A stretch of 64,000 nucleotides of DNA, from assembly GCA_963717935.1 (NCBI GenBank), contig CAVQXP010000004.1:1472001-1536000 (forward strand), read 5' to 3'. Under the pieces are notes generated by a model. It was not told where the DNA came from. It did no database searches and saw nothing but the letters and a program-made list of their open reading frames with translations. Numbering within the stretch: position 1 is the stretch's first letter; each line of letters begins with the position of its first letter. Source of the stretch: Candidatus Eiseniibacteriota bacterium. GTDB taxonomy: Bacteria > Eisenbacteria > RBG-16-71-46. This document shows positions 12,655 through 22,418 of the stretch, piece by piece. The position numbers and the translations under genes are program-made.

Positions 12655-15330
12655 TTGCACCCGCTCGACCGCATCTTCAGGCCCCAGCGCATCGCGCTGA
12701 TCGGCGCCTCGCAGAACCCGAAGAGCGTCTCGGGCACGGTGCTCAAGAACCTGGTCGGCTCGGGCTTCCGCGGGGTGGTCTACCCCGTGAACCCCGCGCA
12801 CGAGTCGGTGCTCGGCGTGCAGTGCTGGCCGGGCCTCGGTGACCTGCCGCGCACGCCGGACTTGGCCGTGATCTGCTCGCCGGCCGGCGAGGTGCCCGAC
12901 GTGGTGCGGGCCTGCGGGGAGGCGGGCATCCGCGGCCTGGTCATCATCTCGGCGGGGTTCCGCGAGACCGGGCCCGCGGGCGCGGCGCTCGAGCAGCGCG
13001 TGCGCGCCGAGATGCGGCGCTTCGACGGGATGCGCGTGCTGGGGCCCAACTGCCTGGGCTTCATCGTCCCGGAGGCGAGCCTCAACGTCACCTTCGCGCA
13101 CGGCATGCCGAAGGCCGGCAGCATCGCCTTCATCTCGCAGTCGGGCGCGCTCTGTACCTCGGTGCTCGACTGGGCGCTCGAGCAGGGGCTGGGCTTCTCG
13201 CACTTCGTCTCGGTCGGCAACCTGCTGGACGTGGACTTCGGCGACCTCATCGACTACCTGGGCGAGGACGAGAGCACCCGCTCCATCCTGCTCTACATCG
13301 AGTCGCTGACCAACGCGCGCAAGTTCCTGAGCGCCGCGCGGGCCTTCGCCCTGGGCAAGCCGATCGTCGCCTACAAGGCCGGCCGTTTCCCCGAGTCCGC
13401 GAAGGCCGCCGCCTCGCACACCGGCGCGCTGGCCTCGGAGGACGAGGTCTTCGACGCCGCGTTCGCGCGCGCCGGCGTAGTGCGCGTCTACGAGATCGCC
13501 GACATCTTCAACGTCGCGGGGCTCGTGGGACGCTACCGCAGCCCGGCCGGCCCGCGGCTGGGCATCGTCACCAACGCCGGCGGGCCCGGCGTGATGGCGA
13601 CCGACGCCCTCATCGCGCGGCGCGGCGCGCTGGCGGACCTCGCCCCGGCGACGATCGCGGCCCTGGACGAGAACCTGCCGCCCGCCTGGTCGCACGGCAA
13701 CCCCGTGGACGTGCTGGGCGACGCCAACTCGAAACGCTACGCGAAGGCCGCCGAGATCGTGGCGGCCGATCGGGGCGTGGACGCGGTGCTGGCCATCCTC
13801 ACGCCCCAGGCCATGACCAACCCGACCGCGACCGCGATGGAGCTGGGCGCCCTGGCGGGGAAGGTGAAGAAGCCCGTGCTCGCCTCGTGGATGGGCGGGG
13901 CCGGCATGCGCGAGGGCGTGCAGGTCCTGGCTCGCGCCGGCGTGGCGACCTACGACACGCCCGACGAGGCGGTGCAGGCCTTCATGACGCTGGTCACCTA
14001 CGCGCGGAACCTGGAGACGCTGTACGAGACGCCCCGCGACATCCCGGTCGAGTTCCCGCTCGACCGGCAGGCGCTCAAGTCGCGCTTCGCCTCGCTGGTG
14101 CCGGCCGAGGGCGACACCCTCTCCGAAGCCGCGTCGAAGACCGTGCTCGAGGCCTACGGCATCCCGGTCGCGCGGCCCGTGCCGGCGGCGGGCGCGGACG
14201 AGGCCGTGCGGGTCGCGGCGGACCTGGGCTACCCGGTGGTTCTCAAGCTCGACTCGCCCGACATCACCCACAAGAGCGACGTGGGTGGCGTGGCGCTGGA
14301 CCTGGAGAGCGCGGACGAGGTGCGCGCGGCCTACGAGCGCATCGTCGCCGGGGCACGGCGGGCGCGGCCCGAGGCGCGCGTCGCCGGTGTGACCGTGCAG
14401 CGCATGGTGCACTCGCGCGACGGGCTCGAGCTGATCGTCGGCGCGCGTCAGGATCCGGTGTTCGGGACCGTGATGCTGGCCGGCATGGGAGGTGTCGCCG
14501 CCGAGGTGCTGCGGGACCGGTCGCTGGGATTGCCGCCGCTCAACGAGCGGCTCGCCCGCCGCATGCTCGAGTCGCTGCGGGCCTGGCCGCTCCTGCAGGG
14601 CTACCGCGGGCGGCCCGGCGTGAACCTGGACCGGCTCATCGAGGCCCTGATGCGCGTTTCGTACCTGGTGGCCGATCACCCCGGGATCAAGGAGCTCGAC
14701 GTCAACCCGCTGCTCGCCACGCCGCACGAGGTCATCGCGCTCGACGCGCGCATCATCGTGGATCGCGAGCGGCTGGCGCACCCGGGGAAGCCGTACTCCC
14801 ACCTGGCGCTGCGGCCCTATCCCGAGGAGCTCGAGCGCCACGTCTCGCTCCCCGACGGCGAGCGGCTGCTGCTGCGGCCCATCCGGCCCGAGGACGAGCC
14901 GCACTGGATGGCGATGCTGGCCGCCTGTTCGCGCGAGACCCTCTACATGCGCTTCCGCTACATGTTCCAGTGGGCTACCCACGAGGCCGCCATGCGCTAC
15001 TGCTTCACCGACTACGACCGCGAGATCGCCATCGTGGCCGAGCGCGAGGGTGGCGAGCCGCGGTTGGTGGGTGTGGGGCGGCTCGTGGCCGAGCCCGAGC
15101 ACGAAGCCGCCGAGTACGCCGTGCTGGTGAGCGATGCCTGGCAGAACCGGGGCCTGGGCGGCGTGCTGACCGACGCCTGCGAGGAGATCGCGCGCGGCTG
15201 GGGTCTCAAGCGCATGGAGGCCCAGACCACCGCCGACAACGCGCGCATGCTGGCGCTGTTCAAGAAGCGCGGCTACACGGTCGAGCCCGACGAGGAAGGG
15301 CTGATGAAGGTGACGAAGGAGTTGCGGTAG
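12655..15330 (+). CDS. Acetate-CoA ligase (ADP-forming)-like / GNAT fusion (Pat/PatZ-type protein lysine acetyltransferase)
   Basis: GPNCLG, SQSGA, SHTGALA, NPVD, HKSDVGGV, then C-terminal GNAT (WQNRGLG); TTG start. Confidence 0.88.
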   Translation: MHPLDRIFRPQRIALIGASQNPKSVSGTVLKNLVGSGFRGVVYPVNPAHESVLGVQCWPGLGDLPRTPDLAVICSPAGEVPDVVRACGEAGIRGLVIISAGFRETGPAGAALEQRVRAEMRRFDGMRVLGPNCLGFIVPEASLNVTFAHGMPKAGSIAFISQSGALCTSVLDWALEQGLGFSHFVSVGNLLDVDFGDLIDYLGEDESTRSILLYIESLTNARKFLSAARAFALGKPIVAYKAGRFPESAKAAASHTGALASEDEVFDAAFARAGVVRVYEIADIFNVAGLVGRYRSPAGPRLGIVTNAGGPGVMATDALIARRGALADLAPATIAALDENLPPAWSHGNPVDVLGDANSKRYAKAAEIVAADRGVDAVLAILTPQAMTNPTATAMELGALAGKVKKPVLASWMGGAGMREGVQVLARAGVATYDTPDEAVQAFMTLVTYARNLETLYETPRDIPVEFPLDRQALKSRFASLVPAEGDTLSEAASKTVLEAYGIPVARPVPAAGADEAVRVAADLGYPVVLKLDSPDITHKSDVGGVALDLESADEVRAAYERIVAGARRARPEARVAGVTVQRMVHSRDGLELIVGARQDPVFGTVMLAGMGGVAAEVLRDRSLGLPPLNERLARRMLESLRAWPLLQGYRGRPGVNLDRLIEALMRVSYLVADHPGIKELDVNPLLATPHEVIALDARIIVDRERLAHPGKPYSHLALRPYPEELERHVSLPDGERLLLRPIRPEDEPHWMAMLAACSRETLYMRFRYMFQWATHEAAMRYCFTDYDREIAIVAEREGGEPRLVGVGRLVAEPEHEAAEYAVLVSDAWQNRGLGGVLTDACEEIARGWGLKRMEAQTTADNARMLALFKKRGYTVEPDEEGLMKVTKELR

Positions 15331-15581: not shown

Positions 15582-16983
15582 ATGGAAGGAAGTCGCCTGC
15601 GAGCGTCACTCCGCGGCCTGGCTTTCGGGCTCGCGCTGCTGGCGGTCGTCGCCGCGCCGCGCGGGCTCTGGGCCGCCGGCGCGCTGAGCGTCCCCTACAC
15701 CACCTTCACCCTGCCCAACGGGCTCAAGGTCATCCTGCACGAGGACCACGCGCTGCCCATCGTCAGCGCGAACATCTGGTACCGCGTGGGATCCGGCGAC
15801 GAGAAGCCGGGGCGGACCGGCTTCGCCCACCTGTTCGAGCACATGATGTTCATGGGCTCGCAGAACGTGCCGACCGGGGACTTCGACCGGCTGCTCGAGG
15901 CCGCGGGGGCCGACAACAACGGCTCCACCACCGAGGACCGCACCAACTACTACGAGGACGGCCCTTCGAACTCCCTGGCGCTCATGCTCTACCTGGACTC
16001 GGACCGCATGGGCTTCCTGACGCCCGAGATCACCGCGGAGAAGGTGGAGCTGCAGAAGGGCGTGGTGCAGAACGAGCGCCGGCAGTCCTACGAGAACCGG
16101 CCCTACGGGCTCGCCGAGGAGAACATCCTGAAGCGCCTCTATCCGCCCGACCATCCCTACCACTGGCCGGTCATCGGCTCCATGGCCGACCTGCAGGCCG
16201 CCTCGCTCGAGGACGTGCAGGACTTCTTCCGCTCCTACTACACGCCCAACAACTCGGTGCTGGTGATCGCCGGGGACATCGATCCGGCCCAGACCCGCCG
16301 GCAGGTGGAGCGCTGGTTCGGGGACGTCCCGCGCGGCCCGAGGTGGTGCGTCGCCCGCCGCCGCCGGTGAAGCTCGAGGCCGACGTGTTCGGCTGCTGGA
16401 GGACCGGGTGCAGTTGCCGCGCGTCTATGACGTGTGGCACTCGGGGCGCCTGTTCGGCCCGGATGACGCGGCCCTCGACGTCCTGAGCCAGATCCTGGGC
16501 GGCGGCAAGTCGTCGCGCCTCTACCGGCGGCTGGTCTACGAGCTGCAGATCGCCAATCAGGTGGTGGTCTACAACGACGCCGGTAAGAGGGACGGCAAGC
16601 TGATGATGTTCGCCACCGCCACGCCCGGCCACGCGCTGGACGAGCTGCAGCGGGTGATCGACGAGGAGTTGGGGCGGCTCGCGCAGACGGGTCCGACCGA
16701 GCGCGAACTGCAGCGGGTCAAGAACGGCGTCGAGGCGCAGTTCCTCGACGGCATGCAGCAGGTGGGCGGGTTCACCGGCAAGGCGAACCAGTTGAACCAC
16801 TATGATTTCTTCGTCGGCACGCCGGACTACTTCAACCAGGACCTCGAGCGCTACCAGAAGCTGACGACCGCCGACATCCAGCGCGTGGCCCGGGAGTACG
16901 TGACCGGCGCGCACCGGGTGGTGCTCAGCATCGTGCCGCAGGGCAAGACGGAGCTGGCGGTGACGGAAGGGAGGCAGCCATGA
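15582..16983 (+). CDS. M16 zinc peptidase, catalytic subunit (two apparent 1-nt deletions near 16340 and 16391)
   Basis: Signal peptide; TLPNGL and HLFEH (HxxEH); reading continues in shifted frames to SSRLY...; ORF track splits it. Confidence 0.85.
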
Positions 16984-18445
16984 ACTCGCTCGTCACGAAC
17001 CTCGTGCGGCGCGTCGTTGCGGCGTGCATCGGGCTCGCGCTGGTCGTGGGAGCGGGGTTCGCCGCGGACGCGCCCCTCGACCGCACGAAGCCCCCGACGC
17101 TCGGCCCGCTCAAGCCGCTGAAGGTGCCCGTGGTGCAGACGCAGACGCTCGCCAACGGGCTCCAGTTGGCGGTCGTCGAGATGCACGAGGTCCCGGTCGT
17201 GGACTGCCTGCTGCTCGTGCGGGCCGGCGCGGCCTACGACCCGCAGGGGAGCCCCGGGCTCGCCACCTTCGTCGCGGGCATGCTCGACGAGGGCGCCGGC
17301 AAGCGCAGCGCGCTGGAGATCTCCGAGGAGGCCGACTACCTCGGGCGCGCAGTTCGGCACGGGCGCCGGGATGGAGAACGCGCAGATCGAGCCTGCACGT
17401 TCCCAGGGCGCGCCTGGAGGCGGCGCTCGACCTGATGGCCGACGTCGCACTGCGGCCGGCGTTCCCCGATTCGGAGATCGCCCGGCAGCGGGAGCTCCGG
17501 AAGAACAGCATCCTCCAGCTGCGCGACCAGCCCACGGCCATGGCGCCCCTCGCGCTCCATGCCATCCTCTTCGGTGCGGCGCACCCGTACGGACACTCGC
17601 AGGTGGGGAACGAAGCCTCGACGGCGGCGCTGGACCGCGCCCGGGTCACGCGCTTCTACGAGACCCATTACCGCCCGGCGAACGCGAAGCTCCTGTTCGT
17701 GGGGGACATCACCCCGGCCGAGGCCCGGAAGCTCGCCGAGGCCCGCTTCGGCGGCTGGTCGAAGGGCGAAGCGCCAGCCCCGCGGACGGGCGTCGTCGCG
17801 CCGCCGGCCGGACGCACGTTCTACCTCGTGGACAAGCCGGGGGCGCCGCAGTCGGTCATCATGATCGGCAACGTCGGCGTGCCGCGCTCCACGCCGGACT
17901 ACTATGCGTTGCGGGTGATGAACAACCTCCTGGGAGGGTCGTTCACCTCGCGGCTCATGCAGAACCTGCGCGAGCTGCACGGCTACACCTACGGTGCGCG
18001 CTCGTACTTCGACATGTACCAGCAGGCCGGGCCGTTCCGCGCCGCGTCCTCGGTGCACACGGCGAAGACCGACAGCGCGCTGATCGAGTTCTTCCGGGAG
18101 TTGCGCCGCATCCGCGACGAACCGGTGCCGGCGGAGGAACTGGCCAAGTCGAAGGCCTACATCGCGCTCGGTCTGCCGGGCGAGTTCGAGACCACGCAGG
18201 GGGCGGCCGGCCGGTTCCTCGACCTGCTCGCCTACGATCTCCCGCTGGATTCCTACGACTCGTTCATCGAGCGGATCCAGGCCGTGACGGCCGAGGACGT
18301 GCAGCGGGTGGCGAGGCAGTACATAACCCCGGACCAGTTCACGGTGGTGGTGGTGGGCGATCGCAGCCAGATCGAGGCCCCCATCAAGGCCCTGAACGAG
18401 GGGCCGGTCGAGCTGCGCGACCTGTGGGGGCAGCCGGCGCAGTAG
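16980..18445 (+). CDS. M16 peptidase-like non-catalytic subunit (two apparent 1-nt insertions near 17344 and 17389)
   Basis: LANGL, HPYG, LGGSFTSRL..NLRE.HGYTYG; no HxxEH; ATGA overlap with upstream gene. Confidence 0.85.
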
Positions 18446-18743: not shown

Positions 18744-19991
18744 CTACATCCCGTACTTCTCGATGATCTGCTGCTTGTTGAGTCCCAGGATGCCGTACTT
18801 GGCGCCGACCTTCTTGAACGCCGCGATGCCCTTGTCGAGGTGGTGCTGCTCGTGCGCGGCCGAGAGCTGCGTGCGGATGCGCGCCTGCGCCTTCGCCACG
18901 ACCGGGAAGAAGAAGCCGACGACGTAGATGCCCTCGGCGAACAGGTCGCGTGCCACGTCCTGCGCCAGCTTGGCGTTGTAGAGCATCACCGGCACGATCG
19001 GGCTCTCGCCCTTCTTGATGTCGAAACCGGCCTCGGTGAGGAGCTTGCGCCAGTAGGTGGTGTTCCACTCGAGCTTGTCGCGCCGCTCGGTGGTGGCCGA
19101 GATCAGGTCCAGCACCTTGAGCGCGCCCTCGACGATGACCGGTGCCACGGTGTTCGAGAACAGGTAGGGCCGCGCCCGCTGGCGGCACATCTCCACCAGC
19201 TCGCGCCGTCCGCTCACGCAGCCGCCGGAGGCCCCGCCGAGGGCCTTGCCGAGCGTGGTGGTGATGATGTCGATCCGGCCGACCACGCCGCAGTGCTCGT
19301 GCGTGCCGCGGCCGGTCTTCCCGATGAAGCCCGAGGAGTGCGAGTCGTCCACGAACACCATGGCGTCGTACTTCTCGGCCAGCGCGACGATCCCGTCGAG
19401 CTTGGCGATGTCGCCGTCCATCGAGAAGACGCCGTCGGTGATGATCATGCGGAAGCGCTTGTCCTGGTGCTCGACGAGCTTCTCCTCGAGGTGGCCCAGG
19501 TCGGAGTGCTTGTAGGTGTCCTGCATCGCCTTGCACAGCCGCATGCCGTCCACGATCGAGGCGTGCACGAGGCGGTCGGAGATCATCACGTCCTGATCGC
19601 CCAGGATGGCCTCGAACACGCCGGCGTTGGCGTCCATGCAGGAGGGGAAGAGCAGCGTGTCCTCCGTGCCGAGGAACGCGGTCAGCTTCTGCTCCAGCTC
19701 GCGGTGGATGTCCTGGGTGCCGCAGATGAAGCGCACCGACGACATGCCGTAGCCGCGGTGGTCGAGCCCCTTGTGCGCGGCCGCCACGACCTCGGGGTGA
19801 CTCGAGAGGCCGAGGTAGTTGTTCGCGCACAGGTTGATGACCTTGTGGCCGCCGCTGCCGACCGGGAACTCGACCTCGATGTCGGCGCCCTGCGGCGAGT
19901 GGATGAAGCGCTCCTCCTTGAACAAACCCTGCTCGCGGAGGCCTTTCAGCTCGGTCTGGTAGTGCTCGCGGACCCTGTCGGCATAACCCAT
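18744..19991 (-). CDS. kbl: Glycine C-acetyltransferase-like alpha-oxoamine synthase
   Basis: NLCANNYLGL, SVRFICGT, DGVFSMDG, DDSH, TLGKALGG (PLP lysine), ARIRTQ. Confidence 0.88.
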   Translation of the reverse strand: MGYADRVREHYQTELKGLREQGLFKEERFIHSPQGADIEVEFPVGSGGHKVINLCANNYLGLSSHPEVVAAAHKGLDHRGYGMSSVRFICGTQDIHRELEQKLTAFLGTEDTLLFPSCMDANAGVFEAILGDQDVMISDRLVHASIVDGMRLCKAMQDTYKHSDLGHLEEKLVEHQDKRFRMIITDGVFSMDGDIAKLDGIVALAEKYDAMVFVDDSHSSGFIGKTGRGTHEHCGVVGRIDIITTTLGKALGGASGGCVSGRRELVEMCRQRARPYLFSNTVAPVIVEGALKVLDLISATTERRDKLEWNTTYWRKLLTEAGFDIKKGESPIVPVMLYNAKLAQDVARDLFAEGIYVVGFFFPVVAKAQARIRTQLSAAHEQHHLDKGIAAFKKVGAKYGILGLNKQQIIEKYGM

Positions 19992-19994
19992 GGC

Positions 19995-20249
19995 TCAGCC
20001 CTTCTGCTGGAAGCGGGTGACCAGCGCGGCGATGCTGTTGACGTTGTCGAAGGCCTGCGGGCTGGCGTCGGCGTCGGGGATCTTGATGCTGAACTTGCGC
20101 TCGAGGAAGCGCTTGAGCGAGACCATCGAGAAGGAGTCCACGATGCCGCCGGTGATGAGCGGTGAGGCCTCGTTGATGACGCGGTCGTCATCCTCCTCGA
20201 GGTACTCCTTCTTCACGTAGTCGAGGATCAGCTGCTTGAGCTCGTCCAT
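19995..20249 (-). CDS. Acyl carrier protein
   Basis: 84 aa, acidic N-terminal region, GIVDSF phosphopantetheinylation motif. Confidence 0.85.
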   Translation of the reverse strand: MDELKQLILDYVKKEYLEEDDDRVINEASPLITGGIVDSFSMVSLKRFLERKFSIKIPDADASPQAFDNVNSIAALVTRFQQKG

Positions 20250-20301
20250 GGGTCTCTCCTGTGGGTTTGGGGCGCGGCCCGCGGGTCGCGGGTCTGTGCG
20301 T

Positions 20302-22005
20302 TCAGTCGTCCATCACGGTGGAGATGTCGCCGACCGGCTCGCCCCACTCCTGGGCCCGCAGGATGCGGCGCACGATCTTGCCGCTGCGGGTCTTGGGGAG
20401 GGCGTCCACGAACTCGATCTCCTGCGGCATGGCCAGCGGCGAGAGCCGCTTGCGGATGAAGTTCATGATCTCCAACTCGAGGTCCTCGTCCGCCTGGAAG
20501 GTGGGCTTGACCACCACGAAGGCCTTCACCACCTCCATGTTCACCGGGTCGGGCTTGGCGACCGCGGCCGACTCGGCCACGGCCGGGTGCTCGAGCAGCG
20601 CCGACTCGATCTCGAACGGGCCGACCAGGTGGCCGCCGGTGTTGATGACGTCGTCGTCGCGGCCCACGAACCAGAAGTAGCCGTCGGCGTCGATGCTGGC
20701 GCGGTCGCCCGTCAGGTACCAGCCGTTCTTGAACTTGTTCTCGTAGGCGGTGGGGTTCTGCCAGTAGGAGCGCATCATCGACGGCCAGCCGGGCTTGAGC
20801 GCGATCAGGCCGACGCTGCCGGGATGGCCGACCGGCTCGTAGGTGCGCGGATCGAGCACCGTGGCCGTGATGCCGGGGAAGGGCTTGCCCATCGAGCCGG
20901 GCTTGATCGGCATCCCGGGGAAGTTGGTGATGACCATGCAGCCGGTCTCGGTCTGCCAGTAGGTGTCGTGGAACATGATGCCGAAGGCTTCCTTCGACCA
21001 GAGCACGGCCTCGGCGTTGAGCGGCTCGCCCACGCTCGCCAGGTGGCGCAGCGCGGAGAGGTCGAACTTGCGCGCGGCCTCGGCGCCCTCGCGCATGAGC
21101 AGGCGGATGGCGGTGGGGGCGGAGTACCAGACGCTCACGCGGTGCTTCTGCATGAAGGCGTACCAGCGCTCGGCGACGAAGCCCGAGTCGAGCACGACCT
21201 GGGTGACGCCGTTGGCCCAGGGCCCGATGATGCCGTAGGAGGTGCCCGTGACCCAGCCGGGGTCCGCATTGCACCAGTAGACGTCCTCCGGCTTGAGGTC
21301 GAGCACCCACTTGCTGGTCAGGTACTGCGAGACCAGCGAGGAGTGCACGTGCTGCGCGCCCTTGGGCTGCCCCGTCGTGCCCGAGGTGTAGTGCAGCACC
21401 GAAGGCGTCTCGGCGAGGGCGGGGTAGGCCTCGAACGACTCGACTCGCGGCTCCTGGTCCAGCGCCAGCGGCACCTCGCGCGCCTGCAGGGGCGGGCCCT
21501 CGGCGCCGTCCACCACGATGATGTGGCGCAGCCCGGGCAACGAGTCGCGGATCTTGCGGACCTTGGCCACGTGCTTGCGCTGGGTCAGGATGGCCGCGGT
21601 CTGCGCGTTGTCGAGGCGCGTGTGCAGCGACTCGTCGCCGAAGGCCGAGAACAGCGGCTGGACGATCCCGCCCATCTTGAGCACGCCGAGGAAGCCCAGG
21701 TAGAGCTCGGGGATGCGGTCCATGAAGAGGCAGATGCGCTCGCCGGGCTTCAGTCCCAGCCGCTGCAGGTAGGCCGCGATCGTGTTGGAGAGCACGCGCA
21801 GGTCGTCGTAGGTGTAGGTGCGCGCGTCGCCTGAGCCGCCCTCCCAGATGAGGGCGGGTTTCGCGGCCGACCCGAGCTGGCAGATGCGGTCGCTGCAGTA
21901 CCAGCCGATGTTGATGGGGTCGCCCCGGCGCCAGCCCAGCTCCTTTTCGGCGTTCGCCCAGTCGAACTGCTTCAGCCGCTCCTCGTACGAGTTCGCGTCG
22001 CTCAT
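20302..22005 (-). CDS. Acetate-CoA ligase-like adenylate-forming enzyme
   Basis: [31 protein letters not shown]; start overlaps acpS stop. Confidence 0.9.
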
Positions 22006-22418
22006 GTGCTGCGTCCTCTCTCCAACGGTGGGGGGTGCACGGAGGTTTCGAGGACCACGGCGGCGGCCGCCAGGTCCCGGGTGTGCGTGAGTGAGACGAA
22101 CAGGCTGCCGGCGAGGCGATCTCCGGCCAGTGCCGCGAGCCGGCCGTGCAGCGTCAGGCGTGGTGCGCCCGATGGCGCGCGCCGCACCTCCACTTCGCGC
22201 CACGAGGCGCCGTCACGATGCCCGGCGCCCAGGGCCTTGAACGCGGCCTCCTTGGCCGCGAAACGCGCGGCGTAGTGCCGGGCCGGGAAGCGCTCGGCCT
22301 CGCAATCGGCGATCTCGCCGGGGGTGAAGAGCCCGGCGACGAAGTCCCGCGGGTCACGCCGGAGTTCCCGCTCCATGCGCGCCACCTCGAGCACGTCCAC
22401 GCCGATCCCGACGATCAT
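22002..22418 (-). CDS. acpS: Holo-ACP synthase (4'-phosphopantetheinyl transferase)
   Basis: [22 protein letters not shown]. Confidence 0.92.

Follow-up and report, generated by a model that had tools for sequence, protein, structure and literature searches.

Why should an enzyme of the Kbl type, which carries out a textbook coenzyme A (CoA)-dependent step of amino-acid metabolism, be encoded directly behind a small acyl carrier protein (ACP), a ligase resembling acetyl-CoA synthetase and a phosphopantetheinyl transferase? The question is raised by a four-gene cassette in a 64,000-nucleotide stretch (the window) of the genome of a Candidatus Eiseniibacteriota bacterium (assembly GCA_963717935.1, contig CAVQXP010000004.1, here C4:1472001-1536000). 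We propose that the acetyl group for the Kbl reaction is here borne by a private carrier protein and not by CoA, a reading to which we give a probability of roughly 0.55. It appears to be the best-supported account of the locus: conserved synteny, the separate clade of the Kbl, the acetate pocket of the ligase, the loss of Arg526 from the same enzyme and the predicted fold of the carrier all argue for it. Much the same logic, leading from AcpS through ligase and carrier to a condensation of acetate with glycine, had been put forward in a preliminary description made from the sequence alone. The evidence just named strengthens that idea, while its individual steps we infer from sequence.

The four genes of the cassette are as follows.

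22002-22418, minus strand: AcpS, a type I 4'-phosphopantetheinyl transferase of 138 amino acids (PF01648, TIGR00516)
20302-22005, minus strand: AcsA-type adenylate-forming ligase, 567 amino acids from its ATG (NF003313), proposed to be an acetate--[carrier protein] ligase
19995-20249, minus strand: dedicated carrier protein of 84 amino acids, with Ser39 in GIVDSFS as the predicted phosphopantetheine serine
18744-19991, minus strand: Kbl-clade alpha-oxoamine synthase of 415 amino acids, dependent on pyridoxal phosphate (PLP) (TIGR01822)

The tight, co-oriented packing reported in the preliminary description is confirmed at the level of both open reading frames (ORFs) and junctions. The stop codon of acpS and the start codon of the ligase gene share an ATGA, 52 nt with an AGGAG-type site lie between the ligase and carrier genes, and the carrier stop is followed after only three bases (GCC) by the ATG of the Kbl gene. 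The GC content at third codon positions is 0.85-0.97 across the four ORFs in a genome of roughly 70% GC, and on this basis the frames are genuine coding sequence. A scan of the minus strand for promoters and terminators found none.

In the scheme that we propose, the cassette AcpS would attach phosphopantetheine to Ser39 of the carrier. The AcsA-derived ligase would then adenylate acetate to acetyl-AMP and transfer the acetyl group to the carrier thiol, and the Kbl-clade enzyme would interconvert acetyl-S-carrier and glycine with 2-amino-3-oxobutanoate and holo-carrier. Threonine dehydrogenase (Tdh), encoded elsewhere in the genome, would connect the 2-amino-3-oxobutanoate step to threonine.

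Conservation of the gene linkage

A synteny survey, which the preliminary description had named as a check on its idea, bears the linkage out. A scan with the carrier alone, using one genome per species, gave at least 342 confirmed relatives, and the locus counts that follow come from the best 80, all of which are in metagenome-assembled genomes (MAGs). The Kbl gene lies 3' of the carrier gene in 78 of the 80; in the other two the contig ends 22 and 89 nt past the carrier. A ligase gene is found no more than 400 nt upstream of the carrier in 70 loci, and elsewhere on the same strand in four more. An AcpS gene accompanies them on the same strand in 50 loci, and in 47 of the 71 that have enough upstream DNA. 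The picture among near relatives is similar: close carrier homologues (E <= 1e-30) occur in 9 of 41 related genomes, and all four genes are found at seven of the eight relatives' loci, the eighth being truncated by a contig end. The gene linkage goes far beyond what chance would give.

The best 80 loci carry the labels of about ten phyla. Within the Acidobacteriota these are Thermoanaerobaculia, Terriglobales, Holophagae and Vicinamibacteria; the remainder include Aminicenantes, Gemmatimonadota, Zixibacteria, Calditrichaeota, Ignavibacteriales, Fibrobacteraceae, Chrysiogenales, Fermentibacteria, Myxococcales and others. Between phylum labels the carrier keeps 60-79% identity. Against a protein database it gave 7679 matches at E <= 0.001, none of the best 120 falling below 76% identity. 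The closest cassette relatives of the window itself are MAGs labelled Acidobacteria/Thermoanaerobaculaceae.

All-against-all clustering of the ORFs around 83 loci revealed no further neighbour common to more than nine of them, and the module is therefore self-contained. The annotated neighbours outside the cassette are lineage-specific (glycosyl hydrolase, histidine kinase, Usp, Rrf2, ABC transporters), and the same clustering found no tailoring, export or regulator genes conserved beside the cassette.

A variant made up of carrier and Kbl, with no ligase within 5-7 kb, is seen at L069, L099, L100, L101, L165 and L166. At the ligase-less loci (Aminicenantes-type, and those of genomes G050 and G045) the upstream ORFs match no Pfam family, and no alternative loader can be named among them.

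The Kbl-type enzyme

By sequence the last enzyme of the cassette is a Kbl. It scores 586.8 bits against TIGR01822 (cut-off 493), exceeds the cut-off of 460 for NF005394, and matches E. coli Kbl (1fc4) with 477 bits. The motifs TLGKALGG, xHAS, VDDSH and ARIRTQ are conserved in the alignment with 1fc4; we take them to supply the PLP-lysine, the stacking histidine, the Asp/His of DDSH and the carboxylate-binding arginine, respectively. It is also the single match to the Kbl/alpha-oxoamine synthase family in its own genome.

Comparison with canonical Kbl by phylogeny, also suggested in the preliminary description, places the cassette enzymes together. In a tree of 36 sequences, 27 of them cassette-type (one row with a stop was left out), all 27 cassette Kbls fall on one branch with 100/100 support, nested among the canonical Kbls. 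The clade is star-like with short inner branches. Near-identical cassette Kbls occur under different phylum labels, Zixibacteria and Ignavibacteriales in one case and Aminicenantes and Chrysiogenales in the other (L049/L050 and L069/L072, branches of 0-0.02), reflecting either recent transfer or mislabelled bins. Identities to the window protein across 153 genomes of the class, which include one unpublished non-cassette genome (G026), form three bands: the cassette type at 71-96% (20 genomes and two fragments), the canonical type at 53-62% and a third type at 37-46%.

The enzyme thus shares with the E. coli kbl-tdh system its Kbl identity and a tdh gene in the genome, and differs in several respects. 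Besides forming its own clade, the cassette Kbl has a short N-terminal extension, an EFPxG insertion and a conserved C-terminal extension of 13 amino acids, and DRLVH replaces DALNH beside the PLP-stacking histidine. In place of tdh its neighbours are a private carrier, a ligase and a phosphopantetheinyl transferase, and its thioester partner would be the carrier protein rather than CoA. Taken together, the genomic context and the clade-specific changes suggest that the cassette Kbl uses a carrier-bound substrate and not acetyl-CoA.

We also modeled the Kbl dimer in complex with the carrier. The prediction scored 0.52 (individual runs 0.52, 0.56 and 0.50), while the best of three controls reached 0.01; the pLDDT of the partner was 84 and the runs agreed in at least 95% of contacts. 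Of 157 solved complexes 116 reach the mark used for such predictions, as do 2 of 215 mismatches, and passing scores of 0.60 or less came from 18 of the 157 solved complexes and from both of those mismatches. On this scale the model weakly favours a partnership between Kbl and carrier.

The ligase

The cassette ligase passes the acetate--CoA ligase model NF003313 narrowly (745.9 against a cut-off of 729) and matches a 572-amino-acid acetyl-CoA synthetase (Acs; PDB 9g79) with 566 bits. Across the class, identities to it fall into tiers of at least 61% for cassette ligases, 47-49% for stand-alone AcsA-type ligases and 36-42% for long Acs enzymes. No other Acs-like ligase was found in a search of its own genome.

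To examine substrate recognition, 27 cassette ligases were aligned with E. coli Acs and four stand-alone AcsA-type ligases from sister genera. The acetate pocket, which we take to consist of Val310, Thr311, Val386 and Trp414 in Salmonella/E. coli Acs numbering, is represented by V252, T253, V325 and W350 and is invariant in all 27, as is Lys543 at the position of the catalytic Lys609. The pocket tryptophan of Acs closes the site to acetate-sized acids. The preliminary description had left room for another short acid as the substrate; with all four pocket residues invariant, this appears unlikely. The ligase therefore shares with AcsA-type Acs (9g79) and with the Salmonella and E. coli enzymes the acetate pocket, the A-motifs and the catalytic, acetylatable lysine in PKTRSGK. 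It differs in its separate identity tier, in the carrier-protein gene beside it and in the replacement of Arg526 by leucine.

This last change is the conspicuous one. Leu460 occupies the Arg526 position, and leucine is found there in all 27 aligned cassette ligases and in 86 of 86 cassette loci holding the motif (93 loci scanned). The arginine is kept in E. coli Acs, in all four stand-alone AcsA-type ligases and in 9g79. According to PMC10455477, Arg191, Arg526 and Arg584 are the conserved Acs arginines of the CoA step, and Arg584 of Salmonella Acs contacts the 3'-phosphate of CoA. At the position equivalent to Arg526 in the Methanothermobacter thermautotrophicus enzyme, the R528A variant did not reach saturation with CoA, and the kcat of R528K/Q was 130- to 326-fold lower (PMC10455477). 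The cassette ligases thus lack the full set of three arginines, Arg526 being replaced throughout. Arg191 was considered as a further CoA marker and set aside as uninformative: arginine stands there in one of the 27 cassette ligases, and the stand-alone AcsA-type ligases, which carry glutamate, are without it as well. If the carrier-bound reading is correct, the exchange of Arg526 for leucine offers a natural case for studying how an acyl-CoA synthetase might be converted into an acyl-carrier ligase.

The carrier protein and AcpS

The carrier has no Pfam match at E <= 0.001, and its best NCBIfam match, to a specialised lipid-pathway ACP (NF052616), reaches 57 bits against a cut-off of 130. Asp38-Ser39 is invariant in 27 of 27 sequences. 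In an AlphaFold model (pLDDT 90.6) the protein is predicted to form a bundle with three long helices, and helix II (residues 39-52) begins at Ser39, so that the conserved Asp-Ser sits at the start of helix II as expected of a carrier fold. The best matches among solved structures are PigG, PltL and DltC (TM 0.75-0.82) and the carrier of a glycine:[carrier protein] ligase. Helix II is basic and hydrophobic, in contrast to the acidic helix of housekeeping AcpP, which is encoded separately at C4:1309419 (108 bits) and is distinct from the cassette carrier.

The cassette AcpS is recognised clearly by both of its models (PF01648, 63.2 bits against a cut-off of 25; TIGR00516, 86.8 against 59.8). As a second AcpS-like match lies at C4:1157472, the cassette gene is an extra copy.

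Threonine dehydrogenase and homoserine metabolism

The preliminary description had noted correctly that the window holds no tdh and had treated the cassette as detached from threonine dehydrogenase. The second point does not stand. The tdh of the genome is at C4:2053837-2054854, 560 kb from the cassette; it is frameshifted in this assembly, intact in genome G004, and belongs to the same orthologous group as the tdh genes of tdh-kbl operons. In sister genera tdh adjoins a canonical kbl (G012, G098, G022, G092, G108, G024 and G124). Both flanks of tdh in the window's own genus are collinear with those in G012, the 1.2-kb kbl gene is gone, and no kbl remnant was detected at the locus. It seems that the module took the place of canonical kbl in this genus. 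Since canonical kbl has been replaced and the only Acs-like ligase found sits in the cassette, we regard the module as the organism's Tdh partner.

The wider distribution points the same way. Of the 14 cassette genomes examined, 13 lack a kbl gene within some 5 kb of tdh; in the exception, G025, a 43%-type Kbl adjoins it. A canonical-type Kbl (53-62% identity) accompanies the cassette in only one of the 22 cassette genomes, G049, and a strong zinc-type tdh is present in 17 of the 22. At 3 of 83 loci (L053, L096 and L035) tdh lies directly upstream of the cassette. Based on this distribution, the cassette Kbl seems to do the job of Kbl beside Tdh. The presence of tdh as such is not a discriminating correlate of the cassette, a tdh match being found in 128 of the 153 genomes.

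Homoserine dehydrogenase gives a less clear picture. Its domain (PF00742) was not found in the window's own genome, which is 93% complete and contains two threonine-synthase-like genes. In the class it is present in 63 of 153 genomes, irrespective of the cassette (8 of 22 cassette genomes, 55 of 131 others), so that the direction of flux through the module is not settled by it. Its absence suggests that auxotrophy is widespread or else that another route is used.

Two genomes encode a fusion of about 770-800 amino acids that joins an alpha/beta hydrolase to a homoserine dehydrogenase (G082 and G075; L163 5613-7904, minus strand, and L164 7126-9519, plus strand). Its gene either separates the cassette Kbl from the ligase or immediately follows the Kbl. 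The hydrolase part is possibly a homoserine acyltransferase. The fusion is a second link of the cassette to threonine and homoserine metabolism.

Comparison with known carrier-loading systems

The nearest parallel in logic, drawn in the preliminary description, is the sphingolipid system of Caulobacter and other Rhodobacteria. As described in PMC9386255, the ligase AasR loads a specialised ACP, AcpR, and cannot acylate CoA, and the serine palmitoyltransferase (Spt) of the system prefers acyl-ACP over acyl-CoA. In both cases an acid would be channelled into one pathway by way of a private ACP, and the grouping of the genes is shared. The parallel is one of logic rather than of homology or chain length. 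The acids of the AasR/AcpR/Spt system are long-chain fatty acids, its amino acid is serine and its ligase is FadD-like (PMC9386255); the cassette instead combines an acetate pocket, a Kbl-type enzyme, an AcsA-like ligase and its own AcpS, and has no lipid genes.

Could the cassette nevertheless initiate a sphingolipid, sulfonolipid or amino-lipid? The high GC content and the shared arrangement of ligase, private ACP and alpha-oxoamine synthase (PMC9386255) first suggested such a role, and the sub-threshold match of the carrier to a lipid-pathway ACP would fit it. The cassette enzyme falls well below the cut-offs of all three serine palmitoyltransferase models, however (322 against 640, 265 against 500 and 223 against 670), and the ligase is Acs-like with a pocket-closing tryptophan, so that neither serine palmitoyltransferase identity nor long-chain specificity is seen. 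Lipid genes such as a reductase or a ceramide synthase are not conserved nearby, and the remark in the preliminary description that fatty-acid and polyketide synthase genes are missing holds for the 20 ORFs scanned between 4.5 and 36.6 kb of the window. We rejected a sphingolipid or long-chain identity on the model scores and the Acs-type pocket, and regard a lipid pathway of this kind as highly improbable.

Structurally, the carrier model superposes best on the carriers of PigI/PigG, PltF/PltL, DltA/DltC and the glycine:[carrier protein] ligase 4h2u (TM 0.67-0.82), and each of these systems pairs a small free-standing carrier with a stand-alone ANL enzyme that loads it. The substrates of those enzymes are amino acids, bound for secondary metabolites or teichoic acid, whereas the cassette has an Acs-like adenylating enzyme and a downstream enzyme of primary metabolism. 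For acetate itself there is a chemical precedent in CitC, the acetate:SH-acyl-carrier ligase of citrate lyase, which acetylates a carrier-protein thiol with acetate at the expense of ATP. CitC differs from the cassette ligase in family, prosthetic group and pathway.

Carrier-bound or CoA-dependent?

Several observations weigh against a carrier-bound pathway. AcpS is absent from 24 of the 71 loci with room for its gene, four loci have no ligase within 7 kb upstream of the carrier, and G050 and G045 show carrier and Kbl alone in about 10 kb; the ligase is not a constant neighbour. The score of the predicted Kbl-carrier complex falls in the weak band described above. A strong zinc-type tdh was not found in four of the 22 cassette genomes (G045, G049, G075 and G082), and the only tdh of a fifth, G039, is divergent and lies beside the cassette. 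Both enzymes exceed the curated equivalog cut-offs for CoA enzymes (745.9 against 729 and 586.8 against 493), and no other Kbl or Acs was found in the window's own genus, so the cassette enzymes could fill housekeeping CoA roles. The phosphopantetheine arm is without the 3'-phosphate of CoA, and the retention of Arg584 in all 27 aligned ligases would count against a complete loss of CoA recognition.

The equivalog scores, the lack of other Kbl or Acs genes and the retained Arg584 would suit an ordinary CoA-dependent acetyl-CoA synthetase and Kbl, with the carrier and AcpS linked to them for some other reason, whether as a regulator, as an optional acceptor or to serve another acyl group. The catalytic residues align with those of E. 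coli Kbl and Acs, and a Pat-type protein acetyltransferase, the usual regulator of Acs, is encoded nearby (12655-15330). On the other hand, a carrier that lies between both enzymes in 70 of 80 loci and remains 60-79% identical across phylum labels is hard to explain without a direct partnership. Both enzymes belong to clades apart from the CoA enzymes of related genomes, and the leucine found at position 526 in 86 of 86 loci affects a position at which changes cripple the CoA step in the M. thermautotrophicus Acs (PMC10455477). We therefore consider the CoA-dependent reading, the main alternative, to be unlikely, although it deserves to be taken seriously.

The cassette genomes without a strong zinc-type tdh, or with only a divergent one, bear on a further possibility: that the product is a different alpha-amino ketone, built from another small acid or amino acid and serving as a signal or secondary metabolite (of the pyrazine, aminoacetone or autoinducer type) outside threonine and glycine metabolism. 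The preliminary description had named an aminoketone signal among the possible products. The alpha-oxoamine synthase family does include signal synthases such as CqsA (a 98-bit match), and the cassette is self-contained with varied flanks. The close match to E. coli Kbl, with PLP- and carboxylate-binding motifs aligned, speaks against it, as do the invariant acetate-pocket residues and the lack of conserved tailoring, export or regulator genes nearby. Its distribution, moreover, is complementary to that of canonical kbl. Because tdh stands alone beside a deleted kbl in the window's own genus and adjoins the cassette at 3 of 83 loci, a carrier-bound Tdh-Kbl threonine/glycine pathway is the likely role, and an aminoketone signal seems quite improbable.

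Possible direction and significance of the pathway

Within the carrier-bound Tdh-Kbl pathway, the module could run in either direction, serving threonine breakdown or the ATP-driven formation of threonine from glycine and acetate. One version of the latter is that the carrier acts as a thermodynamic ratchet. The ligase would spend ATP (to AMP and PPi) to keep a small carrier pool acetylated independently of the acetyl-CoA/CoA ratio, the nearly fully acetylated carrier would push the unfavourable Kbl condensation, and Tdh running in reverse would yield threonine by a homoserine-independent route. We offer this as a speculation that is more probably wrong than right. Its mirror image, in which threonine is broken down to acetate and ATP is recovered through reversal of the ligase, agrees equally well with the evidence.

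If carrier-bound chemistry is confirmed, a textbook CoA-dependent step of amino-acid metabolism would have a carrier-protein-dependent twin, found widely among Acidobacteriota, Gemmatimonadota, Zixibacteria, Calditrichota, Fibrobacterota, Aminicenantes and further groups, most of them uncultured. The principle of AasR/AcpR/Spt, known for long-chain lipids, would then apply to a C2 unit of primary metabolism as well. Annotation pipelines call the cassette genes plain acetyl-CoA synthetase and Kbl, and because of these labels reconstructions may misplace the fluxes of acetate, glycine and threonine. The preliminary description knew of no system with this combination; our search of open-access texts likewise found no description of a ligase-carrier-Kbl module.

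Genomic surroundings and further observations

The window belongs to a 3.0-Mb assembly of five contigs that is 93% complete. The flanks of the cassette are unrelated to it, with a divergent GTPase gene on one side and, on the other, two M16 peptidase genes and the Pat-type acetyltransferase gene. The M16 (insulinase-type) peptidase genes stand in tandem on the plus strand (about 15582-16983 and 16980-18445), and each is split across two reading frames. Single frame changes also break the second AcpS gene, tdh and an exosortase-type ligase gene elsewhere in the genome, whereas the four cassette genes are intact. This suggests that the breaks are assembly indel errors rather than pseudogenes.

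The Pat-type protein acetyltransferase (12655-15330, plus strand, 891 amino acids) joins an ADP-forming acyl-CoA-synthetase-like part to a GNAT domain. In G006 (L031) such a gene directly adjoins the cassette Kbl. Pat enzymes acetylate the PKTRSGK lysine of Acs; the cassette ligase retains it, and the acetyltransferase may be a regulator of the ligase.

In the sister genus represented by G017 (L159, 3129-5974), a stand-alone AcsA-type ligase, 47.5% identical to the cassette ligase, adjoins a 76%-identical orthologue of the cassette-flanking GTPase. From this arrangement, the cassette may have arisen at an AcsA locus or replaced one.

Contigs from four metatranscriptome-labelled runs in two studies match the cassette at 90-99% likeness. 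A 735-nt contig of X15 covers 19626-20353, taking in the start of the Kbl gene, the carrier gene and the end of the ligase gene, and a 2903-nt contig covers 20650-22419, with ligase and AcpS. Libraries so labelled can contain DNA, and a contig is not the same as a transcript; contigs that bridge the gene junctions are thus only consistent with expression in close relatives.

A second ligase and carrier pair is present in the same genome (G000:C2:99111-100825; L130, L172). Its ligase resembles the exosortase A-associated acyl-CoA ligase TIGR03098 (201 and 233 bits in two frames, below the cut-off) and is followed by a 90-amino-acid ACP that is 31% identical to the cassette carrier. Pairs resembling this ligase and ACP occur in six relatives (L036-L041).

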